DNA of 64,000 nt from an uncultured Rikenellaceae bacterium (GCA_964634565.1 CAZWLP010000001.1:29146-93145), one strand, 5' to 3'; numbered from the stretch's first letter, positions 39,199 through 52,516 are shown. The notes: generated by a model not told the origin, from the sequence alone. Program-made: numbers and translations.

Positions 39199-40146
39199 AT
39201 GATTCGCTTTATTTTTATACTTGCAACAATTATCTCAATCGCCTGTGGATCATATGCTTTAATATTATTGAGCAGGCTTAGAAAAATTTATAAGCTCGAC
39301 TTTATTTCCAGCTTCCTGTATTATGAAATACTAAAACTGGGGTTTGGACTATATGGAATTTTTGGCGGTCTGGCAATAAAAGAAATACTACTTAAGTACG
39401 AGCTTCAGTCGGGTCAGATTGAGTCAATAGTTATTGCCCTTCCTTTTTTTGGAGTCCCCTTTATTATAGCTGCCTGGTATCTTCTTATTAAGATGACCAA
39501 CGAAATGGCAGGTCGCAAAGTAAATCAGTCTGTTTCAATCAGCTATTTCATCCTTACTACAGTTTTCTTCCTGGCATACGGACTAATATTAAGGTCGTCG
39601 CCCGACAGCAGGAATGTTGATCCTGATAATCTCTCACAGCTTATCAGAATAATTTTTTACGTTCTCGACTTCCTGGTAAAACTATATGTTGTAGTTATTC
39701 TTCTCAGCCAGGGTAAGAAATCAAGATATGCTAAGTACCCATCACTTATCAGCAGGTTTAGTTTACTGCTTCTTGTAACAGCCCTGATGAGTTCAGCTGC
39801 TCTTCACTTTGCCTATGTTCATCCCCTTATCGGAATTTATTTTATACTGCTCTTCTTCGGAGCCGACCTTGCTCTAATTATTATTTTAAGAATATACCTT
39901 AATAATAATCAGAATGAATACTCTGATTTAACGGATACACTGGAAAACCTGTACCAGCAATATGGAATCTCAAAAAGAGAAAGAGATATAATAAAAGAAA
40001 TTGGTAATGGCCTCACAAACCAGCAGATTGCTGATAAACTTTTTATTTCCCTCCAAACTGTCAAAGACCATACTCATAATATTTTCAGAAAGGTAAATGT
40101 ATCAAACAGAGTGCAGCTTACACAGATATTTTCAGTGGCATACTAA
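39199..40146 (+). CDS. Membrane-anchored LuxR-type HTH regulator (multi-TM N-terminus)
   Basis: About 7 hydrophobic helices, then ISKRERDII..I.NGLTNQQIADKLFISLQTVKDHTHNIFRKVNVSNR. Confidence 0.9.
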   Translation: MIRFIFILATIISIACGSYALILLSRLRKIYKLDFISSFLYYEILKLGFGLYGIFGGLAIKEILLKYELQSGQIESIVIALPFFGVPFIIAAWYLLIKMTNEMAGRKVNQSVSISYFILTTVFFLAYGLILRSSPDSRNVDPDNLSQLIRIIFYVLDFLVKLYVVVILLSQGKKSRYAKYPSLISRFSLLLLVTALMSSAALHFAYVHPLIGIYFILLFFGADLALIIILRIYLNNNQNEYSDLTDTLENLYQQYGISKRERDIIKEIGNGLTNQQIADKLFISLQTVKDHTHNIFRKVNVSNRVQLTQIFSVAY

Positions 40147-40230: not shown

Positions 40231-41139
40231 ATGCAAAAATTCCTCCATTACTACTTAAAGAGTATTACGGGTATCATACTTATACTTATGATCATCCTTG
40301 GATCGTGTCGCAAGCCTTCCGATCCTCCCGCACCGGATACCACAACAAAATATGATGCCTGCTTCGATGGGGGAAGCAGCAGCAGTCTGGATATTGTTAC
40401 CTTTAATGTTGAGCAATTTCCAAAAAACGGATATGAAACGATTGCCGAGCTGGCTACACTTATCAATGCAATAAATGCAGATATAATTGCCCTTCAGGAA
40501 GTAACATCTGATTCAGACCTTGATAAACTGGATGATCTTCTGGATGATTATTCTGCTCTGGCCTACCCTATTGATAATTCAGACTGGAACCTGGCCTACC
40601 TCTTCAGGAATTCAGAAATTCAAATAGATGCCTCCGAAACAAAAATTTTATTTGAAGACGACTGGTATTCATTTCCCAGGCCACCCTTCGAGATTCATGC
40701 TACACATATACCAAGCTCAACCGAAGTAATCCTTTTGAACAATCACCTGAAATGCTGTGGCGGATCAGATAATGAAGACAGAAGAAGGACAGCTTCAGAA
40801 AAACTGCATAATTATATTGAATCTAATTATCCCGATGATGCTGTAATAGTACTGGGCGACCTGAACGATGAAATAGACGGTACATCTGAAGCAAGCAACG
40901 TCTTCTGGGATTTTGTAAATGATCCTTCCGACTTTGCTGTTGCAGATATGATTATAGCTACCGGTAGTCCGCTATGGTGGTCTTACCCTTCATGGCCCAG
41001 CCATATCGACCATATTATTATTAGCGACGAGCTGTTCGACATGGTTGATGAAGTATCGACTCTTAAGGCAGATGCCTGCTATAGCGATTATCCGGATATT
41101 ATCTCCGATCACAGACCCGTCTATTTAAGGTTGAAATGA
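40231..41139 (+). CDS. Endonuclease/exonuclease/phosphatase (DNase I-like) lipoprotein
   Basis: Lipobox LGSC; TFNVE, ALQEV, NNHLK, LGDLND, HIDH, SDHRPV. Confidence 0.88.
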   Translation: MQKFLHYYLKSITGIILILMIILGSCRKPSDPPAPDTTTKYDACFDGGSSSSLDIVTFNVEQFPKNGYETIAELATLINAINADIIALQEVTSDSDLDKLDDLLDDYSALAYPIDNSDWNLAYLFRNSEIQIDASETKILFEDDWYSFPRPPFEIHATHIPSSTEVILLNNHLKCCGGSDNEDRRRTASEKLHNYIESNYPDDAVIVLGDLNDEIDGTSEASNVFWDFVNDPSDFAVADMIIATGSPLWWSYPSWPSHIDHIIISDELFDMVDEVSTLKADACYSDYPDIISDHRPVYLRLK

Positions 41140-41154
41140 TCGCTTCGAATAATG

Positions 41155-41214
41155 GTTGAGATGGCAGCAAGCTGCCAATAGTTGAGATGCCTGCGTCGCA
41201 GGCAATAGTTGAGA
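41155..41214. repeat. Linker-hairpin mini-array: GTTGAGA x3 separated by perfect GC hairpins
   Basis: GGCAGC-AA-GCTGCC (41163-41176) and GCCTGCG-T-CGCAGGC (41189-41203), each followed by AATAGTTGAGA. Confidence 0.85.
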
Positions 41215-41225
41215 ATTTGTTTTTC

Positions 41226-41296
41226 AACCCAGTTTAAACCCAGTCTCAACCCAGTCTCAACCCAGTCTCAACCCAGTCTCAACCCAGTTTCAACCC
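41226..41296. repeat. 11-bp tandem repeat (AACCCAGTCTC), 6 units + partial
   Basis: Four exact units at 41237-41280 plus two variant flanking units. Confidence 0.95.
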
Positions 41297-41302
41297 TTCC
41301 TC

Positions 41303-42340
41303 CTATTCCATTTGTTTAACAACAATAATATATACCGGGAAATGATCACTATAACCTCCCTGGTGGGTTGTGCCAACATAAGTCCTGAAAGGATATCCCT
41401 TGAACTGACCGTCCTGCTGCATCAGGAAATCCTTATTAAAAACCCGGGCTGCATAGTAGGTAAGTGTTCTATAATCATTGCCGAGCAGGCCCTGTGAAAT
41501 TACAATCTGGTCGAAAAGGTTCCATGCGTCGCGGTAGGCCAGGGATCCTATACCCTGCTTAAATAAAGGAAACATACAGTTAAATAACTCCCCCTCTTCC
41601 AGATGATCAATATGATCGCTGGCCCTGAGAACATCTTTCATACTTATATTTACCGGGTCGTCGTTAAAATCGCCCATTAGAATAATATTTGCATCGGGAT
41701 CAATGGCCAGAAGACTATCAGTAATTGCCCGTGATAATCCCGCAGCAGCATTTCTTCTTGGCCTGCTTGCCTTTTCCCCTCCCCTTCTTGAGGGCCAGTG
41801 ATTAACAATAAAATGTACTTCCTCATCAATAAATGTTCCGCTCACCAACAGCTGATCCCTGGTATAGATTCTTTTCCCCTCATCATCAAACAGGGGTAAC
41901 TCAAGACTGGCTGAACTTTCAGGTGTAAAATACCTTGGCTGATATAAGAGGGCTACATCCACACCCCTGAGGTCAGGAGAATCATAATGGACAATCCTGT
42001 AATCAGCATTTTTAAGATAGGGATGTGCTACAAGATCCTCAAGAACTAATCTGTTTTCTATCTCCGATACCCCAAGTATGGCCGGTCCTCCCGGGATGCC
42101 TTCATCCTCACCTATTTTTGAAATAACCCCTGCCATTCTTTCTATTTTTTCAAGGTATCTTTTACCGGTCCATTCGTTAGGACCATCGGGCGTAAATTCC
42201 TCGTCAAGAACACCTTCTGTATTTATAGTGTCAAACAGGTTTTCGAGGTTATAAAAAGCTACCACACCCGCTTTGAGAGATTGAGAATAAAGTCCTGCAG
42301 AAATAAAAACAAGTATAATTATTGTAAGTATCCTTTTCAT
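41303..42340 (-). CDS. Secreted endonuclease/exonuclease/phosphatase family nuclease
   Basis: Signal peptide (LYS-Q); FYNLENLFD, SEIEN, NHWPSRRGG, GDFND, FDQI, YSDHFPV. Confidence 0.9.
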   Translation of the reverse strand: MKRILTIIILVFISAGLYSQSLKAGVVAFYNLENLFDTINTEGVLDEEFTPDGPNEWTGKRYLEKIERMAGVISKIGEDEGIPGGPAILGVSEIENRLVLEDLVAHPYLKNADYRIVHYDSPDLRGVDVALLYQPRYFTPESSASLELPLFDDEGKRIYTRDQLLVSGTFIDEEVHFIVNHWPSRRGGEKASRPRRNAAAGLSRAITDSLLAIDPDANIILMGDFNDDPVNISMKDVLRASDHIDHLEEGELFNCMFPLFKQGIGSLAYRDAWNLFDQIVISQGLLGNDYRTLTYYAARVFNKDFLMQQDGQFKGYPFRTYVGTTHQGGYSDHFPVYIIVVKQME

Positions 42341-42455
42341 AATATTTATCTTTTGCTGTAAAAATAGGATTAAGTCTTATCTCCTCCAATTTGTTATGGC
42401 TAAATTAAAATTTTTACCCAATATTGGTTATCTTTAGGCCCCAATTTTTATATAT

Positions 42456-44960
42456 ATGAGAAACTTAAAATTACTAATTGCGGCACTGGCTTTGTCGGCC
42501 ATTTCTTTGCCTCAATTTGCACAGCAAAATATTGTTAAAGACACTATTGCAGATAAGAATATTTCTGCATTTAAACAGGACCTGCCAACATTCAGCATAA
42601 CAGATTCTGATGCAGATAACAGTCTGGAATCACAAACAATAAATGGACTTTTGAGTTCTTCGTCCGATATTTTTGTTTCGACTGCTGCCTATACCTTCGG
42701 GCCGGCGAGATTCAGAATAAAAGGATACGATCAAAAATATTCGACTGTTATGATCAACGGGTTTATTGTAAACGAAGTTGAATCGGGCGGACCATACTGG
42801 TCGAACTGGGGAGGCCTTAACGATGTGATGAGAAATAATGTTGTGACAAGTAACTCTGCACCGGAAGGAACAATTTTTGAGCCTGTTGGTGGCATTACCA
42901 GGGTAATAACCAACGCTTCTGAATATAGAAAAGGGCTTAAAGCCGTATACTCACTTTCAAACCGTACCTACCGGAACAGGGTGATGCTTACCTATTCAAC
43001 TGGCTTACTTGAAAACAACTGGGCATTCACCGGGTCAGTTTCCCGCAGATGGAGCCAGGAAGGATTTGTAGACGGCACCTTTTACGATGCAAACAGTTTC
43101 TTTCTTTCTGCAGAAAAAATTATAAATAAGAAGCACAGCCTCAACTTCACAGCACTCGATGCAATGTACAAGCGGGGAGTAGGTGGCGGTTCTGTTCAGG
43201 AAGCTTACGATCTTACCGGGTCAAATTACTATAATCCCTACTGGGGATTTCAGGACGGAGGCGTAAGGAACTCACGGGTCAGATCATCAAATAAACCCTT
43301 AATCACTATTAAACATACCTGGAAGGCAGGAGAAAACACCACTATTAAAACAAGCGCCGGCTCATGGTTTGGCAGGGGAGGATATACTGCCCTTAACTGG
43401 TACGATGCCCCCGATCCACGACCCGATTACTGGAGAAATCTTCCCAGCTACTATACTCTGGAAGAAGATCAGCAGAGGATTGCTGCAGGCTGGTCTGATC
43501 CCTCTGTCAGTCAGCTTAACTGGAACCATTTCTACACCACAAACCGAAAAAACCTCTTCACAATGGAAGATGTAGACGGGGTAGCGGGCAAAACATATAC
43601 AGGTTACAGGTCGAAATATATAATTGAAGACAGGCGCAACGATATATCACAGTTTCAGTTTAATAGCAATATAAGACATGAGGCTGGAAATATAACCCTT
43701 AGCGGTGGTATATCAGCAGATATTTACCAGGGACATAACTTTAATGTTATTGAAGACCTGCTTGGAGGCGAATACTGGGTTGATATCGACCAGTTTGCTG
43801 AGCGTGATTATCCCGACGACCCCGATGCTATACAAAACGACTTAAATAATCCCAACAGGATAGTAAAAGAAGGTGATACTTACAGCCATAACTATACAGC
43901 TCACCAGAATAAGTTTGGCGGATGGGGTCTTCTGGAATATGATCTTAACAAATTTTATGGATACCTCGGAACAAGCCTCTCGACAACAAGTATCTGGAGA
44001 GAGGGACATACCAGGAAAGGATTATTCCCCGACAACTCGTTTGGAGATTCCGAGCATCTCAACTTCACAACATTCGGAATTAAGGCAGGAAGTGAAATCA
44101 GATTAAGCGGAAGACATATTGTGCAATTCAATGCCATGTATCAGGGACTTCCTCCAACATTTACTAATTCATTTGTTTCACCCAGAACCAGAAATACTGC
44201 AACACCCGGCCTGACAGCAGAAAAGCTTACCAGTATAGACGCCTCATATATAGCAAGATTACCATGGGTAACAGGGCGGTTAACAGCATATTATACGAAA
44301 TTCAGTGACCAGACAGAACTGTCGAGTTTTTATCATGACGAACTAAGGACCTTCGTTAATTATTCCGTAAGCGGCATTGATAAAGAACACTATGGAATTG
44401 AGTACGGGGCAGAGTTTAAACTTACTTCTACACTAACACTGAATACAGTAGCAGCTATCGGACAGTACATGTGGGTAAGCAACCCAAATATTCTGATAAC
44501 TCAGGATAATAACAGCGAAATACTAAGTAACGATGAGGTATGGGTTCAGTATTTCAGGGTAGATGGTACTCCCCAGACAGCTCTTGCTGCAGGTATCGAG
44601 TACAGCTCCCCGAATTATTGGTGGGCAGGAATTACAGGAAGTTTTTATGATCATATATATATAGACTTTAACCCTGTATCACGCACAAAGGATGAAAGCG
44701 GATACTATCCCAACTGGACCTCAATGCAAAAACAAAATTCGGCCTTCCTTGTTGATGCTTTTATTGGTAAATCATGGGCCGTAGACGATATGTATATTAC
44801 CCTGAGTGCTAATCTTAGTAATATTACCAATACTACAGACTTTGTTACCGGCGGATTTGAACAATACAGGTTTGATCCTTCTAACCCGGAAAGATTTCAA
44901 CCTAAGTACTACTACTATTACGGGTTTAATTATTTTATCAACTTCAGTATAAGAATGTAA
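42456..44960 (+). CDS. TonB-dependent receptor (non-SusC type)
   Basis: Signal peptide; plug with RFRIKGYD..YS.VMING and WSNWGGLND; beta-barrel; no N-terminal extension domain. Confidence 0.85.
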   Translation: MRNLKLLIAALALSAISLPQFAQQNIVKDTIADKNISAFKQDLPTFSITDSDADNSLESQTINGLLSSSSDIFVSTAAYTFGPARFRIKGYDQKYSTVMINGFIVNEVESGGPYWSNWGGLNDVMRNNVVTSNSAPEGTIFEPVGGITRVITNASEYRKGLKAVYSLSNRTYRNRVMLTYSTGLLENNWAFTGSVSRRWSQEGFVDGTFYDANSFFLSAEKIINKKHSLNFTALDAMYKRGVGGGSVQEAYDLTGSNYYNPYWGFQDGGVRNSRVRSSNKPLITIKHTWKAGENTTIKTSAGSWFGRGGYTALNWYDAPDPRPDYWRNLPSYYTLEEDQQRIAAGWSDPSVSQLNWNHFYTTNRKNLFTMEDVDGVAGKTYTGYRSKYIIEDRRNDISQFQFNSNIRHEAGNITLSGGISADIYQGHNFNVIEDLLGGEYWVDIDQFAERDYPDDPDAIQNDLNNPNRIVKEGDTYSHNYTAHQNKFGGWGLLEYDLNKFYGYLGTSLSTTSIWREGHTRKGLFPDNSFGDSEHLNFTTFGIKAGSEIRLSGRHIVQFNAMYQGLPPTFTNSFVSPRTRNTATPGLTAEKLTSIDASYIARLPWVTGRLTAYYTKFSDQTELSSFYHDELRTFVNYSVSGIDKEHYGIEYGAEFKLTSTLTLNTVAAIGQYMWVSNPNILITQDNNSEILSNDEVWVQYFRVDGTPQTALAAGIEYSSPNYWWAGITGSFYDHIYIDFNPVSRTKDESGYYPNWTSMQKQNSAFLVDAFIGKSWAVDDMYITLSANLSNITNTTDFVTGGFEQYRFDPSNPERFQPKYYYYYGFNYFINFSIRM

Positions 44961-44972
44961 GTTAAACCCACA

Positions 44973-46343
44973 ATGAATAATACCATGAAAATATCATATA
45001 AAATAGCGCTGACCCTTTTTGCAATATTTATAGCAGCTGTAGCATGTGTCGAAAAATTTGATACTCCTCCGGAAAATGTCCCCTTCGAAACCGGGACAAT
45101 AGTTAGCATCAGCCAGCTTAAAGCACTTTATGACGACGAGCTGTTAAAAGACTGGTTCGACCGCACTCCTGTAGAAATAACTGATAACTGGGCCATAAGG
45201 GGTATCGTTACCGGAAGTGATAAAAAGGACGGAAATCTCTATAAGGAAGGATATATTGAAGATGCATCTTCCGGCATACTGCTAAAATTTGAATCAACAG
45301 GCGGATTCTACCTGGGCGATTCGGTTATTATAAATGTTAAAGGTCTTTTCCTTGGAGACTATGGAGACTTTGTTCAAATGGGCGGAGTCCCTTATACAGA
45401 TGCAGGCGGAAGCCTCAGGGTCTCGGGATTCAATAAAGATAAACAGATGATAATAGTATCTGTCGGTAATGCTTCACACCCTACCCTGACTACAATAAGC
45501 GAGATAGAGTCGGGTGATTTCCTTGGCAAATTAGTAACTCTGAATGATGTTCAGTTCTCAGGTGGTGATATAGGCAAAACATACGCCGACCCCGTGTCTG
45601 ACCCTCCACAATCAATGAATCGCTACCTCGAAGATTGTGACGGCAACAGTATTATTGTAAGGAGCAGTGGATATTCGACTTTTGCAGGCGACCCCCTGCC
45701 CGAAGGTAATGGCACTATTACAGGGATTGTAACAAAATTTAATACCGACCTGCAGATAATTATAAGAGATATCAGCGAAGTGGATATGACAGGAGAGCGT
45801 TGCGCTCAGGTGCTCGGAACACTGGGATCGCCGGTGGAAACTCTGAGTGAAGATTTTGAGGGCTTTGCAGATTATGATAATATTGAAGTAGACGGATGGC
45901 AGAGTATGATAGTAAAGGGAGGAAGATACTGGATAGCACAGGAATTCGACAATAATTTATATATGCAGGCCTCAGGCCATAATTCAGGGGTTGACGAAAT
46001 GGAAACCTGGGTTATTACCCAACCCATAACTATATCTGCCCAGAAAGTTCTTACATTCAGATCGGCAATGGCTTACTGGGAGCATGACCCCGGCAATGAT
46101 CCCTTTGAACTCCTTTTTTCTACCGATTATAACGGAACAAATATAGAATCTGCTACATGGACTCCTCTCACTGCAGTCTTAGCCGACGACGACAATAGCA
46201 ACTATGAATGGGTGGCTTCGGGTGATATTAATCTCCCTGTACAGACAGGAGCATCAGGTGTTATTGCCTTTAAGTATTCGGGAAGTAATACCGAAAGTAC
46301 AAGTTTTATAATTGATGATGTTGTTGTAAGTGCAGCTAAATAA
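44973..46343 (+). CDS. DUF5689-like lipoprotein (OB-fold-like region + C-terminal beta-sandwich)
   Basis: Lipobox VAC; IRGIVT..D..GNLYK..YIED.SSGI, GKLVTLNDVQF, VRSSGYSTFA..PLPEGNGTITG; C-terminal EDFE...FIIDDV domain. Confidence 0.75.
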   Translation: MNNTMKISYKIALTLFAIFIAAVACVEKFDTPPENVPFETGTIVSISQLKALYDDELLKDWFDRTPVEITDNWAIRGIVTGSDKKDGNLYKEGYIEDASSGILLKFESTGGFYLGDSVIINVKGLFLGDYGDFVQMGGVPYTDAGGSLRVSGFNKDKQMIIVSVGNASHPTLTTISEIESGDFLGKLVTLNDVQFSGGDIGKTYADPVSDPPQSMNRYLEDCDGNSIIVRSSGYSTFAGDPLPEGNGTITGIVTKFNTDLQIIIRDISEVDMTGERCAQVLGTLGSPVETLSEDFEGFADYDNIEVDGWQSMIVKGGRYWIAQEFDNNLYMQASGHNSGVDEMETWVITQPITISAQKVLTFRSAMAYWEHDPGNDPFELLFSTDYNGTNIESATWTPLTAVLADDDNSNYEWVASGDINLPVQTGASGVIAFKYSGSNTESTSFIIDDVVVSAAK

Positions 46344-46355
46344 ACATAACTGAAA

Positions 46356-47600
46356 ATGATTAAATCTATCAAGAAAACAATAGGCCTGCTGGCAATAATA
46401 AGTATACTTACTCTCAGCGCATGCGACAGAGAGCCAATACCTCCGCCACAACCCAGGATCGAACAAATCTCAATTGCAGATCTGAAAGCTATGCACCAGG
46501 GAAGTACAGTGGTAATTGATTCGGCTGTTTTTATCCAGGGAATTGTTACCCTTACTCCCGAGAAAAACAATATTCCTGATTTTGTAGGTTATATGCAGGA
46601 CGAAACTGGCGGTATTACCTTAACAGTTGATGGCAATAATAACCTTTCAGAAGGCTCCGAGATAAAGATTTTTTGCGAAGGAATTGAGCTGTCTGATTAC
46701 AATGGACTTCTCCAATTTGGAAATATAGACCTTGGGACACAATCCGAGCTGATAAGTATCTCTGCCGACCCCATCACCCCGGTTAGTGTAACTATCCAGG
46801 ATATACTTGATGGTGAGCATATTGCTGAACTGGTTTCTATAAGTGGAGTAGAATTCTCTGATAAAGGAAGCTTCTCGGGTAGTCAGACGCTTACAAACTG
46901 CTCGGAGGAAATTGCTGTTTACACAAGATCGGATGCAACATTCTCCGGAGATATTATGCCCGAAGGAAATGGAACTTTTGTTGGGGTAGCTTCTGTATAT
47001 AACGATGCTCAGCTGCTGATGAGAGATCCTGCAGATCTGGATATGACAGGTACAAGATGTGAGCCTTTCTTTGAAGGAATCTTCCAGGAAAATTTTAGTT
47101 CGCTATCCTATTTAGATCCTGTCACCGTTATAGATGGTTGGATAAGCAGTTTGCAAGAAGGTGATAGGGAATGGGCAGGAAATAATTACCTCGAAAACAA
47201 ATACGTCCAGGCAACTGCGCATGGTTCCGGTCTTGCCAGTATGATCGCATGGATGATTACCCCTTCAATTGATCTGTCAAATTCTATAAACCCTGTATTT
47301 TCGTTTGATAGTAAGCTTGGTTATCCAAATGGTGCAACTCTGGATGTTTTTATCTCATCAGACTACGATGGCTCTGCGAATCCATGGAATTATACCTGGA
47401 CAGCTCTTAATCCAACTCTGCCAACGGAGGTCATTCCTGGCTCAAATTATTCAGACTGGTTATCGTCGGGTAATATTGATCTGTCAGCCTATAGTTCAAC
47501 CATATATATAGCATTTGTTTATACAGGTAGTGATGGAGCAAGCAAGCAAACAACAACCTGGCAGATTGATAATGTAATTATTGACGAAAGCAGTAAATGA
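46356..47600 (+). CDS. Second DUF5689-like lipoprotein, paralogue of the upstream gene
   Basis: Lipobox LSAC; IQGIVT, QDETGGI, AELVSI.GVEF, F....MPEGNGTF.G, C-terminal WQIDNV. Confidence 0.75.
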   Translation: MIKSIKKTIGLLAIISILTLSACDREPIPPPQPRIEQISIADLKAMHQGSTVVIDSAVFIQGIVTLTPEKNNIPDFVGYMQDETGGITLTVDGNNNLSEGSEIKIFCEGIELSDYNGLLQFGNIDLGTQSELISISADPITPVSVTIQDILDGEHIAELVSISGVEFSDKGSFSGSQTLTNCSEEIAVYTRSDATFSGDIMPEGNGTFVGVASVYNDAQLLMRDPADLDMTGTRCEPFFEGIFQENFSSLSYLDPVTVIDGWISSLQEGDREWAGNNYLENKYVQATAHGSGLASMIAWMITPSIDLSNSINPVFSFDSKLGYPNGATLDVFISSDYDGSANPWNYTWTALNPTLPTEVIPGSNYSDWLSSGNIDLSAYSSTIYIAFVYTGSDGASKQTTTWQIDNVIIDESSK

Positions 47601-48676
47601 ATAATATAAGGTTTATTTCAACCTTATTCCTCTCTGTTTTTATAACAGGATATCTCGGGGCCCAGGCTCCGTCAGGGTATTATAATTCAGCTGCAGGATT
47701 AACGGGTACCACGCTTCAGCAGGCACTGCATGATATTATCGACAATCATACTGTACTAAGCTATACTCCGGGTCTCTGGGATGCCGTAAAGTCAACTGAT
47801 GCCAGGGGCGATGGAACAGTCTGGGACATGTATTCCGACAATCCTTCAGGAATTAATCCTTACAATTACACCTTTGTTACCGACCAGTGCGGTAGTACAG
47901 GCTATAATTCTGAATCAGACTGTTACAACCGGGAGCACTCCTTCCCAAAAAGCTGGTTTGACGATTCATCACCGATGTATACCGACCTTAATCATATCTT
48001 TCCGACCGACGGATATGTTAACAGCAAGAGAAGCAATTATGCCTTTGGTGAAACAAACAGTCCTTCGTGGACATCTCAGAACGGAAGTAAAGTGGGACCC
48101 TCTTCTGTTTCAGGGTTTTCAGGAACAATATTTGAACCTATTGATGAATACAAAGGTGATTTTGCCAGAACACATCTTTATATGGCTGTAAGGTACTACG
48201 GTGAGGATTCTTCCTGGCCGGGAGGAGATATGACAGATGGCGCACAGCCAAAAGAATGGGCTCTGGATATGCTCCTGATATGGCATAAGGATGATCCTGT
48301 AAGTCAGAAAGAAAAAGACCGTAATAACCAGATATATAGTCTCCAGGATAATCGTAATCCATTTATCGATGATCCCTCTTTTGCAGAAAAAATCTGGAGC
48401 GCCACAGGGATAAGCAATAAGAAGATTGAAACAGACGAAGATCTGAAAATCTACCCTAACCCCGCAGGTGAAGAGCTTCGATTCACAATAAATGAAAATA
48501 TAGATTCAGAGTTAAGCATTCAGATCTGCTCCTTAACGGGATCAGTAATTAAATATCTTTCAATAAAATCCACATCCGAAAACCATATTAATATCCAATC
48601 CCTCGAAAAAGGATCATATATTTTACTTATCAGGACCGGAAATAATATCTACAGAAGTCGTTTTATTAAATTATAA
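47597..48676 (+). CDS. Endonuclease I family nuclease with T9SS type-A C-terminal sorting domain
   Basis: YNREHSFPKSW, DLNHIFP, NSKRSN, KGDFAR, RNPFID; CTD IYPNP...GSYILLI...FIK. Confidence 0.9.
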   Translation: MNNIRFISTLFLSVFITGYLGAQAPSGYYNSAAGLTGTTLQQALHDIIDNHTVLSYTPGLWDAVKSTDARGDGTVWDMYSDNPSGINPYNYTFVTDQCGSTGYNSESDCYNREHSFPKSWFDDSSPMYTDLNHIFPTDGYVNSKRSNYAFGETNSPSWTSQNGSKVGPSSVSGFSGTIFEPIDEYKGDFARTHLYMAVRYYGEDSSWPGGDMTDGAQPKEWALDMLLIWHKDDPVSQKEKDRNNQIYSLQDNRNPFIDDPSFAEKIWSATGISNKKIETDEDLKIYPNPAGEELRFTINENIDSELSIQICSLTGSVIKYLSIKSTSENHINIQSLEKGSYILLIRTGNNIYRSRFIKL

Positions 48677-48689
48677 AACCCTTTTTTAC

Positions 48690-48775
48690 CACGCAGAGCG
48701 TGATCTTCGCTTCGCTCCGACTTTTTACTTTTTCCCTTCCCGGTTTCTGGTTTCCTGTTTCCGGTTTCCTGTTCC
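48690..48775. repeat. Hairpin plus heptamer-periodic tract
   Basis: CACGC-AGA-GCGTG (48690-48702), (ACTTTTT)x2 at 48720-48733, then six CGGTTTC-like heptamers. Confidence 0.75.
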
Positions 48776-48870
48776 CACTTCATATAAACATATCTAGAGT
48801 GATAAATATGATCTTTTTTTTATAAGGATTTTTTTCTTATTTTATGGCTCAAATCCTAAAGCTAATTACT

Positions 48871-49233
48871 ATGAAATATCTAAGTATTATATCAATTATT
48901 TTCTTGCTGGCCATTTCGTGCCAGAACAACGAATCCCAGAAGGCTGATGCCAAAGAAACTGTAGCTACTGAGCTTGAAGCTCCGGTGGATTATGTTGAGT
49001 ATAGTGTTAGTATTGAAGGCATGACCTGTACAGGATGTGAAGAGACTATTGAAGCAGGAGTTACAAAGATAGAAGGAGTAGGATCTGTTGAAGCTAATTT
49101 TACAGATGGAAAGGCCATTCTTCAATTTGATAAAAACAATATCGACACCCTGGAGGTAAAAAATGTAATTGAAGCTGCAGGTTATAAAGTTGTGTCATTT
49201 AATAAGGTTCCTGATTCTGCAATAGCAGAATAA
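48871..49233 (+). CDS. Heavy-metal-associated (HMA, MerP/CopZ-like) lipoprotein
   Basis: Lipobox AISC; GMTCTGCE metal loop; IEAAGY. Likely ATG 48871 (track: 48844). Confidence 0.88.
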   Translation: MKYLSIISIIFLLAISCQNNESQKADAKETVATELEAPVDYVEYSVSIEGMTCTGCEETIEAGVTKIEGVGSVEANFTDGKAILQFDKNNIDTLEVKNVIEAAGYKVVSFNKVPDSAIAE

Positions 49234-49257: not shown

Positions 49258-50238
49258 ATGGAAGAAGAAAAAAAGAATCAATCAAAGCGGCCAGGAGAAG
49301 AGAAAGATCCGGAGAAAAGCTCCAGACGTGATTTTATGAAATCGGTTGGCCTTGTTGGTGCGGCAGCAATAACAGGCGGAGCAGCAATATATTCAGGCTA
49401 TAAACACGAAAAGTCGAAGGGACCAAAAGAAACTGTGAGGGTACTAACCGAAGACAATCGATTGGTTGAGATACCGGTTGATCAGATTGAGGAAGTAGCC
49501 TCATCCCTTAAAGTATTACAAACCAGGGGACGTGAAGGTATAGCCGGACGCAGGTGGGTTATGGTTATCGACCTGGCAAAGTGCCGTAATGCAAGGCAGT
49601 GTGTTAACGCCTGCCAGTCGGCTCACGGACTAAGACCTTATGAGTATCATATCAATACTCTTGCAATGCAGGAGAATGAGACATCGGCTCCGTATTTTAT
49701 GCCGAAACCATGTCAGCATTGCGATAATCCACCCTGCGTAGCTGTCTGCCCTGTCGATGCCACATACAAGAGACAGGACGGGATAGTATTAATTGATAAT
49801 GAAAGATGCATTGGATGCCGCTTCTGTATTGCTGCCTGCCCCTACTCAGCCAGAATGTTTCACTGGGAACAACCAAAAGAGATTGATATAAGCGAAGATA
49901 CCGTCTACGATGTTGAACTCAATATCCCTCAAAGGAAGGGTACTGTTACAAAGTGCCTGTTCAGCGCCGACAGGGTAAGAGAGGGAAAATTGCCATATTG
50001 CGTATCTGCCTGCCCTAACGGGGTCTTTTATTTTGGTGACGAAAATGAAGATGCTGTAACTAATGGCACAACTAAAGAGACTGTTCGGCTGAGTCAGCTT
50101 CTGGAAGATAATGCAGGCTACCGTCTTATGCCTGAACTGGGAACTCAACCAAGGGTATACTACCTGCCTCCAAAGAATCGTCTTTTCGATTTTCCAGATG
50201 ATCAGGGCCCGGACAATATCGATAACAAACATGTTTAA
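49258..50238 (+). CDS. Tat-exported 4Fe-4S dicluster protein (NrfC/DmsB/QrcC-like)
   Basis: SRRDFMK twin-arginine signal; CQHCDNPPCVAVCP and CIGCRFCIAACP intact; motifs I and IV each lack one Cys; ends GTQPRVYY. Confidence 0.9.
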   Translation: MEEEKKNQSKRPGEEKDPEKSSRRDFMKSVGLVGAAAITGGAAIYSGYKHEKSKGPKETVRVLTEDNRLVEIPVDQIEEVASSLKVLQTRGREGIAGRRWVMVIDLAKCRNARQCVNACQSAHGLRPYEYHINTLAMQENETSAPYFMPKPCQHCDNPPCVAVCPVDATYKRQDGIVLIDNERCIGCRFCIAACPYSARMFHWEQPKEIDISEDTVYDVELNIPQRKGTVTKCLFSADRVREGKLPYCVSACPNGVFYFGDENEDAVTNGTTKETVRLSQLLEDNAGYRLMPELGTQPRVYYLPPKNRLFDFPDDQGPDNIDNKHV

Positions 50239-50254
50239 TTTGTGAATTTATTAT

Positions 50255-51601
50255 ATGTCAGATTCAGATAAAAAATTCCTTGCCCGGCCCGAAGTAATTG
50301 ATAAGGTGTCTTCTGACCTGCTCAGGCCGGTAAGGCTAAACAGGAGCTTCGTGCTCTGGATGATGCTGCTTGGCGTATCTCTTGTTCTATGCCTCTATGC
50401 TTACTCGATACAGCTCAAAAAAGGTCTGATTGTAACCGGCATGCGTGATTATATAAGCTGGGGTATGTATATAGCCAACTTTGTATTTTTTGTTGCTACA
50501 AGTCTTGTTGGTATGCTTATAAGCGCAGTACTGGGACTGATTGGTTATTCATGGGTAAAACCAATTGCAAGGATTGCCGAAATTATTGCAGTAGCTTTTG
50601 CAGCCATCGCAGGTATTGTAATTATCTCTGATATGGGTCGCCCCGAAAGATTGCCATTTTTATTCTTGCACGGCCGCATTCAGTCACCCATCCTATGGGA
50701 TGTAACTGTTGTAACAACCTATTTTGTTATCAGTCTGCTGCTTTATTTCCTCCCCCTGATTCCCGATCTGGCAATAGCCCGTAATCGTTTAATCGGAGCT
50801 CCGGTATGGTTGCAAAAGGTATATAAAATCCTTTCCTTAAGATGGGTACATAAGAACAGTCAGTACAAAATTATTATAAAATCCATCCGCATACTGCTTA
50901 TCCTGATTATCCCGACTGCCTTTGCCATTCATACAGTTACATCATGGCTCTTCGCTGTTACAACACGCGCAGGATGGGACAGTACAATATTTGGCCCCTA
51001 CTTCCTTACCGGGGCCTTTGTTGCCGGAAGTGCGGCAGTGATTATCGCTATGTTCTTTTTCAGAAATAGTTACAGGCTTAAAGACTACCTTACAGATATG
51101 CATTTTGATAAGATGTCTAAGCTGCTTGTTCTTGTTGCAATTGTTTACCTCTATTTTAATATTAACGAATTTCTGGTACCGGCATATAAGCTAAAGAAAT
51201 TTGATGCCGTGCATATACATGCTTTATTCAGTGGCCATTATGCCTTACTTTTCTGGGGCACTCAACTACTGGGTCTTATTATTCCAACTATCTTACTGCT
51301 ATTTAAACCCTTACGCAAACCTCTGCCTGCTACCATCATTTCTGTTTTTGTTATTATTGGCAGCTGGCTAAAGCGATATATAATTGTTGTACCAACACAG
51401 GAACATCCTTTCCTTCCAATACAACACGTACCAGGTGAATGGTTTGTATATAAACCAACTCTTATTGAGACAGCAATAACCATGGGATCGATAATTCTGG
51501 TACTTATAATTATTAGTGTCCTCTCAAAAATCTTTCCTGTAATACCTATCTGGGAAATGGCAGAGGAAAGAGAAAAAGAATTAAGAGATAAAGAGAGATA
51601 A
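50255..51601 (+). CDS. NrfD/PsrC-family quinol-binding membrane subunit
   Basis: WGMYIANFVF, DMGRPER, SPILWD, HTVTSW, FGPYF; about 10 TM. Confidence 0.9.
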   Translation: MSDSDKKFLARPEVIDKVSSDLLRPVRLNRSFVLWMMLLGVSLVLCLYAYSIQLKKGLIVTGMRDYISWGMYIANFVFFVATSLVGMLISAVLGLIGYSWVKPIARIAEIIAVAFAAIAGIVIISDMGRPERLPFLFLHGRIQSPILWDVTVVTTYFVISLLLYFLPLIPDLAIARNRLIGAPVWLQKVYKILSLRWVHKNSQYKIIIKSIRILLILIIPTAFAIHTVTSWLFAVTTRAGWDSTIFGPYFLTGAFVAGSAAVIIAMFFFRNSYRLKDYLTDMHFDKMSKLLVLVAIVYLYFNINEFLVPAYKLKKFDAVHIHALFSGHYALLFWGTQLLGLIIPTILLLFKPLRKPLPATIISVFVIIGSWLKRYIIVVPTQEHPFLPIQHVPGEWFVYKPTLIETAITMGSIILVLIIISVLSKIFPVIPIWEMAEEREKELRDKER

Positions 51602-51616
51602 TACAAAAACCAGGCA

Positions 51617-52516
51617 ATGAGATATAAACTATTAATATTATTAATCTTATTAGGACAGCAGATTGTTTTAGCCCAGAAATGGGAAGTCCCCCAGGACAGA
51701 AGCGACAAACTCTCTACTTTTGAATTTACTGATGCCACAAGAAATGCAGGTGAAGCTATCTATTCTCTCGACTGTAAATCATGTCATGGAAATCCCGGCA
51801 AGGGTAACTACCAGTCCCTTAACCCAATACCAGGAGATCCGGCAACAGAAAAGATACAGATTAACAGTGATGGTGCCCTTCATTATAAGATAAGTGAAGG
51901 AAGAGGACTGATGCCATCGTTTAAAAGGATTTTATCTCCGGATGATATCTGGAATGTTATATCCTTCCTCAGAAGCTTTAACCCCGACTATAAACAGGTG
52001 TTTGCAACAGCAAGCAAACTAACTAACCTGAAGTGGTCGGAGATTAAGATCATGGTTGATCTTATTGAAGAGAAACATCAGCTTGTTGCAAAACTTATCG
52101 GACTGGAAGGAGATAAATGGACTCCTGTTACTGACACTGAATTAAGGTTAACGGCAAAAAGATATTTTGGAACCATAGCTATTGACGATCCAAAGATATC
52201 TGATAGCAAAGGCGAAGCTATATTTGATGTTTCCGGTGATTTGCCCGGAAATAGCGAAGGTGGAATTGAGCTTACTGTTCAGCTAACAGATTTAGAATTA
52301 TTCGGAGACCTTAAAAAAGATACAATACTGATTATCGGGATCGCTTCCCTGGCACCGCCATTAAATAAGGAAAGAGCAATGTGGAACATTAACAGGAAGG
52401 CCCCTGTCTGGCTGATATTAGCATATTCAGCAGTTTTGCTAACAGTATGGTGCTTTATATTTTATGTCCTGTTCAGGCTCAGGACCATTCACAAGGAAGG
52501 AGAAGACGAAGAATAA
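51617..52516 (+). CDS. Monoheme cytochrome c with extra beta domain and C-terminal membrane anchor
   Basis: Signal peptide (VLA-Q), CKSCH, distal Met in GRGLMPSF, C-terminal TM helix. Confidence 0.85.
   Translation: MRYKLLILLILLGQQIVLAQKWEVPQDRSDKLSTFEFTDATRNAGEAIYSLDCKSCHGNPGKGNYQSLNPIPGDPATEKIQINSDGALHYKISEGRGLMPSFKRILSPDDIWNVISFLRSFNPDYKQVFATASKLTNLKWSEIKIMVDLIEEKHQLVAKLIGLEGDKWTPVTDTELRLTAKRYFGTIAIDDPKISDSKGEAIFDVSGDLPGNSEGGIELTVQLTDLELFGDLKKDTILIIGIASLAPPLNKERAMWNINRKAPVWLILAYSAVLLTVWCFIFYVLFRLRTIHKEGEDEE

Follow-up and report, generated by a model that had tools for sequence, protein, structure and literature searches.

The window is a 64,000-nucleotide stretch of DNA from an uncultured Rikenellaceae bacterium (GCA_964634565.1, CAZWLP010000001.1:29146-93145), a source organism known as a metagenome-assembled genome (MAG). 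Its locus at positions 40231-48676, counted over the whole window as are all coordinates below, contains six open reading frames (ORF1 to ORF6) and very likely encodes a ddb-type extracellular nucleic-acid utilization system, an analog for DNA of a polysaccharide utilization locus (PUL), with capture, cleavage and TonB-driven import of the substrate. Within the published ddb DNA-utilization family, the locus is a variant relying on the type IX secretion system (T9SS), and not a new kind of system. The evidence obtained here consists of the gene content, the domain families, the fold of the transporter, the presence of a T9SS in the genome and the conserved synteny. The features of the locus are the following:

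40231-41139, + strand: ORF1, 302 aa, ddbA-like, predicted nuclease of the endonuclease/exonuclease/phosphatase (EEP) fold, outer-membrane lipoprotein
41303-42340, - strand: ORF2, 345 aa, ddbB-like, predicted periplasmic EEP-fold nuclease with a signal peptidase I (SPI) signal peptide, divergent from ORF3
42341-42455, no strand: ORF2/ORF3 divergent intergenic region, 115 nt, presumed to hold the promoters of both genes
42456-44960, + strand: ORF3, 834 aa, ddbC-like TonB-dependent outer-membrane transporter without the N-terminal carboxypeptidase-regulatory-like domain
44973-46343, + strand: ORF4, 456 aa, ddbD-like lipoprotein with DUF5689 (presumed DNA-binding) and a C-terminal choice-of-anchor-J jelly-roll
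46356-47600, + strand: ORF5, 414 aa, ddbE-like lipoprotein, paralog of ORF4 with the same two-domain architecture
47597-48676, + strand: ORF6, 359 aa, ddbF-analogous predicted extracellular nuclease, endonuclease I with a T9SS type-A C-terminal sorting domain

Gene-by-gene match to the ddb locus

The reference system, ddbABCDEF of Bacteroides thetaiotaomicron DFI.1.47, comprises the subtypes Bt1, Bt2, Pv1 and Pv2 (Sharan et al., PNAS 2025, PMC12478041), and the ddb region of strain VPI-5482 is BT3560-3563 (PMC8851478). DdbA is a signal peptidase II (SPII) nuclease, DdbB an SPI nuclease, DdbC a TonB-dependent transporter (TBDT; WP_008762511.1), and DdbD a DUF5689 protein with predicted docking to DdbC and a likeness to the DNA-binding HIN domain of p202 (PMC12478041). 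DdbE is an SPII protein without assigned function, and DdbF is an SPII extracellular nuclease homologous to BT3563 (PMC12478041, PMC8851478). It is from this literature on homologous loci that DdbA, DdbB and DdbF are known as active nucleases, that DNA depletion is known to need the locus and that a DdbC-DdbD complex has been predicted: the three nucleases cut DNA in vitro, and a ddb deletion mutant is unable to deplete exogenous DNA (PMC12478041).

The window locus follows ddbABCDEF position by position, with six genes in about 8.5-8.9 kb, the same roles and the same order. Each combines a SusD-less transporter with a DUF5689 partner, adds one more accessory lipoprotein of the SPII type and ends in an extracellular nuclease, and the nucleases carry differing signal peptides in ddb, as is predicted for ORF1, ORF2 and ORF6. 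The original prediction, made from the sequence of the window, had proposed a PUL-like system acting on nucleic acid and had pointed to a similar locus reported in gut Bacteroides, of which this one might be a relative rather than something new. Both proposals are borne out by the gene-for-gene ddbABCDEF layout (PMC12478041). The six-gene set and its tight packing also agree exactly with the ORF listing of the window, where ORF4 begins 12 nt after ORF3, ORF5 begins 12 nt after ORF4, and ORF5 and ORF6 overlap by 4 nt (ATGA). A DUF5689 gene directly next to the transporter gene, as found here for ORF4, is a criterion of ddb loci.

ORF1, ORF2 and ORF6 are predicted nucleases with intact catalytic motifs, and they are routed in three ways, as first proposed. 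ORF1 matches Exo_endo_phos in Pfam (PF03372, E=6e-12), and its best NCBIfam matches are weak and all nucleases (MnuA, ExeM/NucH, Xth). Its EEP motifs can be read in the sequence as FNVEQF, ALQEV, NNHL, GDLND and SDHRP. The lipobox ILGS↓C is kept in 27 of 34 orthologs and is followed by the basic residues RK; since basic residues directly behind the lipidated cysteine are also a conserved feature of the orthologs, ORF1 may be oriented towards the periplasm. ORF2 matches Exo_endo_phos_3 over its full length (PF19580, E=1e-127) and has an SPI-type signal peptide without a lipobox cysteine, and its EEP motifs are also intact. PDB sequence searches with ORF1 and ORF2 returned no relatives. PF19580 is matched in the B. 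thetaiotaomicron genome used as a control. Two more PF19580 paralogs lie elsewhere in the window's own genome, at C13:36349-37257 (E=7e-77) and C115:4119-5018 (E=5e-59).

The third nuclease, ORF6, holds a full-length Endonuclease_1 domain (PF04231, E=3e-80, residues 36-260) and matches Vibrio endonuclease I (Vvn, 1oup) in PDB sequence searches. Across 32 aligned sequences, the window protein and 31 orthologs, the domain is always present and the NREH catalytic motif is invariant. At its C-terminus, residues 285-358 form a Por_Secre_tail (PF18962, E=3e-12; TIGR04183, E=1e-12). Together with the N-terminal signal peptide and a genome that encodes the T9SS translocon SprA (2728 bits), this tail gives ORF6 the features of a T9SS type-A cargo protein. 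The tail is found in 30/32 of the aligned sequences and is therefore the normal state of this branch. ORF6 is the only PF04231 gene in its own genome. In the B. thetaiotaomicron control genome, neither PF04231 nor SprA found a match, so the T9SS endonuclease, which had been suggested as a variant, is a real difference. The split EEP arrangement, suggested as a variant as well, is not one: it corresponds to the division between the lipoprotein DdbA and the periplasmic DdbB in the known system, and divergent transcription of B and C persists as far as Flavobacteriaceae-like genomes.

The two lipoproteins expected beside the receptor were found with lipoboxes AVA↓C (ORF4) and LSA↓C (ORF5), the latter followed by DREP and kept in 32/39 orthologs. 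Both proteins match DUF5689 (PF18942; E=1e-54 for ORF4 and E=9e-34 for ORF5) and choice-of-anchor J (NF038128; E=4e-17 and E=2e-16), and in alignment they are 31% identical. ORF4 matches over its full length NF052645, the "M949_1556 family lipoprotein" named after a Riemerella locus tag, with 211.7 bits, and ORF5 scores 118.3 bits; since both values are below the 475-bit cut-off, the two proteins are relatives and not members of this subfamily. In the window's own genome, DUF5689 occurs in these two genes and nowhere else, and it is also matched in the B. thetaiotaomicron control genome. The AlphaFold2 model of ORF4 (predicted local distance difference test, pLDDT, 88.5) has a C-terminal domain that resembles gingipain cleaved-adhesin, MAM and Eph ligand-binding domains in Foldseek. 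For the N-terminal halves of ORF4 and ORF5, a relaxed Pfam scan returned DUF5689 only, and a PDB profile search for a DNA-binding fold in DUF5689 gave insignificant matches.

The transporter required structural comparison. ORF3 has no Pfam or NCBIfam match at E<=0.01, only a weak Plug match (E=0.049, residues 47-131), and no useful PDB sequence match was obtained with the single sequence (phmmer) or with a 30-sequence profile. The AlphaFold2 model, built on 30 homologs (pLDDT 72, predicted template modelling score 0.75), is a plug-plus-barrel that Foldseek matches to the TBDTs Fiu, PqqU, YncD, FecA, BtuB, FhuA and OprC with E=7e-26 to 1e-19 and a probability of 1.0. A conserved TonB-box-like segment, QDLPTFSIT, precedes the plug. 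Among the 50 structural matches listed, none is described as SusC-like. The proposal of a non-SusC TonB receptor is thus upheld by the fold, the sequence searches alone having failed.

Members of the ORF3 family (>4600 homologs, annotated as TonB-dependent receptor or as carboxypeptidase-like regulatory domain protein) are typically about 905 aa long, with PF13715/PF13620 at the N-terminus. About 70 N-terminal residues, the entire carboxypeptidase-regulatory-like domain, are cleanly absent from ORF3 and from the transporters of its two closest relatives, L004 and L005. The 115 nt that separate ORF3 from ORF2 are too short for an overlooked exon-like start. The next sisters, at 70% identity, retain the domain, which is kept in 64/84 of the transporter sequences compared (window included). 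It is also absent from a clade of rumen MAGs (L050-L073), and the losses in the two clades are apparently independent. The N-terminal domain is reportedly important in SusC-type transporters, and this natural loss offers a small test case for its role.

Conservation and genomic context

Conservation was counted over the closest 80 species-level loci retrieved with the ORF3 transporter, the nearest public locus having a transporter 93% identical to ORF3. The complete order and orientation A B' C D E F, corresponding to ORF1 to ORF6, is found in 28/80 loci, a linkage far beyond chance. The genes are therefore not unlinked in other genomes, an outcome that the original prediction had named as contrary to its proposal. 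Among the loci with enough flanking sequence, this is also the commonest architecture (20/50). The ORF1-type gene lies upstream of B in 28 loci, and the ORF2-type gene lies opposite C in 53 loci, including those of Saprospiraceae, Lewinellaceae and Flavobacteriaceae-like genomes. Gene D stands immediately downstream of C wherever the contigs of the relatives extend past the transporter gene. The B'<->C-D core extends to Saprospiraceae, Lewinellaceae and Sphingobacteriales; Flavobacteriaceae-like genomes carry a divergent B'<->C-D in the three-gene form known from Riemerella, and in the rumen MAGs the arrangement is C-D-D, with B missing.

ORF3 homologs (E<=1e-20) occur in 96/401 genomes of an even sample of the phylum. 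The published survey counted DdbC homologs >50% identical over >75% of the length of the Bt1, Bt2, Pv1 or Pv2 queries (PMC12478041). Since no genome of the phylum sample outside the window's own (G000) is >54% identical to ORF3, against this cut-off of >50%, the locus probably lies outside all four subtypes, and the lineage of the window was probably not counted in that survey.

The absence of SusD and glycoside hydrolases, already proposed from the sequence, was confirmed. No SusD, glycoside hydrolase or classical competence gene is present between 36 and 55 kb in the window, and the six proteins and nine neighbours have no SusD, SusC-type or glycoside hydrolase family match in Pfam or NCBIfam. 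Elsewhere, the genome encodes three 5'-nucleotidase-family genes, one concentrative nucleoside transporter (CNT) and ComEC.

The upstream neighbours (YebC, DUF975 and a LuxR-family gene) are unrelated to the locus. A regulatory role for the LuxR-family gene at 39199-40146 was weighed and rejected; the gene is kept only in the 93%-identical relative L004, about 2.4 kb from gene A. Downstream, the genes for a heavy-metal-associated (HMA) domain protein, an Fe-S protein, NrfD and cytochrome c are likewise unrelated to the locus. The small HMA-domain gene follows ORF6 at 48844-49233. Weak HMA matches (27-29% identity) were seen downstream of F in L017 (16166-16399), L021 (16584-16775), L023 (10753-10980) and L029 (12401-12610), which are distant loci without the Fe-S/NrfD/cytochrome c operon of the window; this recurrence may be a coincidence. 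The operon itself, at 49258-52516, encodes a 4Fe-4S dicluster protein, an NrfD-type membrane subunit and a c-type cytochrome, shares 87-93% identity with L004, and looks like a quinone-linked respiratory oxidoreductase module unrelated to the locus. A seven-gene form, in which a weak DUF5689-like gene (26-33% identity) lies upstream of A, was noticed in L017, L018, L020, L022, L023, L029, L043, L047 and L048, relatives labelled Prolixibacteraceae or Rikenella; the extra gene is absent from the window.

The intergenic region 42341-42455 is AT-rich, with near-matches, by eye only, to the Bacteroidota TAnnTTTG element. The sigma-70 promoter scan was uninformative (42 found, 29 ± 5 expected), Bacteroidota promoters being outside its coverage, and so was the terminator scan (10 found, 8 ± 2.7 expected), which gave no intrinsic-terminator-like hairpin in the 167-nt gap 3' of ORF6. 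That gap contains a short 7/14-nt tandem repeat, GTTTCCGGTTTCCT, with 2.2 copies at 48740-48773. ORF1 and ORF2 converge on a 163-nt spacer, which at 41224-41296 contains an 11-nt tandem repeat, TCAACCCAGTC, in 6.6 copies with 93% matches. L004 has about 2.5 copies of TCAACCCAGTC at the same place, so the copy number varies between close relatives.

Proposed function and alternative explanations

For the organism of the window, we infer the substrate, the localisation of the proteins, the order of the steps and the physiological role as follows. ORF6 would leave the cell via the T9SS and, held at the surface or released, would fragment extracellular DNA and possibly RNA. ORF4 and ORF5 would hold nucleic acid at the cell surface, and ORF4 may act as a lid or substrate-binding partner of ORF3, in the place of SusD. 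Oligonucleotides would then be taken into the periplasm by ORF3 using TonB energy and be degraded further by ORF2, predicted to be soluble and periplasmic, and by ORF1, which would be membrane-anchored in an uncertain orientation. The 5'-nucleotidases and the CNT nucleoside transporter encoded elsewhere could complete the salvage.

Several observations weigh against this assignment. No OB/HIN-like (oligonucleotide/oligosaccharide-binding or HIN) fold was recovered for the DUF5689 part of ORF4, as matches to the C-terminal jelly-roll prevailed in the Foldseek search with the whole protein. The strict export signal C(x/xx)(D/E)(D/E) (PMC12478041) is found in none of ORF1, ORF4 and ORF5, so their surface exposure is assumed. 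Judged by sequence, ORF6 and B. thetaiotaomicron DdbF are analogous without being homologous, because PF04231 is unmatched in the control genome. The homology of ORF3 and DdbC is drawn from shared annotation, fold, partner gene and synteny, and not from a direct pairwise alignment. Finally, DNA is a poor sole source of carbon, nitrogen or phosphorus in B. thetaiotaomicron (PMC12478041), so that "feeding" may overstate the role.

The best-surviving alternative, although unlikely, is that the locus serves natural transformation as its outer-membrane stage of DNA uptake, in which the DUF5689 lipoprotein binds DNA, the TonB-dependent barrel passes it and ComEC receives it. In Riemerella anatipestifer, the DdbC and DdbD homologs RA0C_RS04915 (an outer-membrane protein with a carboxypeptidase-regulatory domain) and RA0C_RS04920 (DUF5689 and DUF5017) are indispensable for natural transformation (Huang et al., Front Microbiol 2021, PMC8459023). 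The statement in the original prediction that no competence gene is present therefore holds for classical com genes and fails for ORF3 and ORF4, whose relatives are these essential genes. The end-to-end match of ORF4 to the Riemerella-named NF052645, the ComEC gene in the same genome and the B'<->C-D core in Flavobacteriaceae-like genomes also favour this alternative. However, ComEC is near-universal and unlinked to the locus, and the two extra nucleases, one of them secreted, and the second binding protein reproduce the catabolic layout of B. thetaiotaomicron and not the three-gene layout of Riemerella. A secreted endonuclease I, such as Vibrio Dns, antagonises transformation by destroying incoming DNA, which was also counted against it. 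Because of the two extra nucleases, including the secreted one, transformation is less likely as the main role, and catabolic and transformation roles could coexist.

It is very unlikely that the nucleases mainly remodel the extracellular DNA (eDNA) of the cell's own biofilm matrix or clear surface DNA, as BT3563 does, with the transporter only recycling the products. BT3563, with which the B. thetaiotaomicron locus ends, acts in bile-dependent biofilm formation and is needed for a dense biofilm, and deletion of BT3560-3563 is slightly worse than deletion of BT3563 alone (PMC8851478). Nonetheless, the strict co-conservation of the transporter, two binding lipoproteins and a periplasmic nuclease is hard to explain unless import is selected. 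Remodelling of biofilm eDNA is compatible with a ddb-type utilization system as a side role.

The EEP superfamily includes phosphatases and sphingomyelinases, which was counted for a third explanation, in which ORF1 and ORF2 are phosphatases or lipid phosphodiesterases and a phosphoester other than nucleic acid is imported, e.g., for phosphorus scavenging. ORF1 matches only the generic PF03372 model in Pfam, and neither protein has PDB sequence relatives, but this explanation is highly improbable: the EEP-slot proteins of the homologous locus, DdbA and DdbB, degrade DNA in vitro (PMC12478041), the best NCBIfam matches of ORF1 are all nucleases, the last gene of the operon is a bona fide endonuclease I with its catalytic residues intact, and the DUF5689 partners are tied to DNA in two experimental systems.

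With ddb-type DNA utilization as the preferred reading, a wider proposal can be made, which is doubtful as a whole. In it, the T9SS-coupled six-gene form would be the main environmental form of ddb, the clade without the N-terminal domain would couple differently to TonB or to its partners if that domain matters, and a dual role in catabolism and ComEC-dependent transformation would be possible in anoxic sediments.

Comparison with known systems

The locus extends the DNA-utilization system of gut Bacteroides to environmental Bacteroidales and leaves the known picture of how ddb-type loci work unchanged. In the environmental relatives, the outer nuclease of the commonest architecture is an endonuclease I secreted by the type IX route. 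Because sediments contain a large nutrient pool in the form of extracellular DNA, the family may serve as a genomic marker of DNA-degrading Bacteroidota.

Compared with ddbABCDEF, the following differences were found. The terminal nuclease is a T9SS-exported endonuclease I in the window, whereas it is an SPII lipoprotein nuclease in Bacteroides, and PMC12478041 makes no mention of the T9SS. The E protein of the window is a DUF5689 paralog of D. The transporter is without the carboxypeptidase-regulatory-like domain found at the N-terminus of most family members. The host differs as well, being an environmental MAG and not a gut Bacteroides.

With the Riemerella locus, the window shares the core of a PF19580-type nuclease, a TonB-dependent barrel and a lipoprotein with DUF5689 and DUF5017/choice-of-anchor J, and typical members of the ORF3 family carry an N-terminal domain of the RA0C_RS04915 type. 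In contrast, the Riemerella locus is a three-gene core tied to transformation, whereas the window has six genes, the additions being a lipoprotein nuclease, a second DUF5689 protein and a secreted endonuclease.

The resemblance to Sus-type PULs lies in the organisation, with binding proteins and a hydrolase at the surface, a TonB-dependent importer encoded beside its lipoprotein partner, and a further hydrolase in the periplasm. However, the window locus has no SusD-family gene or glycoside hydrolase, its hydrolases are predicted nucleases, and ORF3 is nearest to TBDTs of the Fiu, PqqU, YncD, FecA and BtuB type, according to the descriptions of the 50 matches listed.

Finally, ORF6 shares the full Endonuclease_1 domain with NREH with endonuclease I of Gammaproteobacteria (Vibrio Vvn/Dns, Escherichia coli EndA). 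Those enzymes are periplasmic or otherwise secreted and stand alone, whereas ORF6 carries a T9SS domain and is translationally coupled to the transporter operon.

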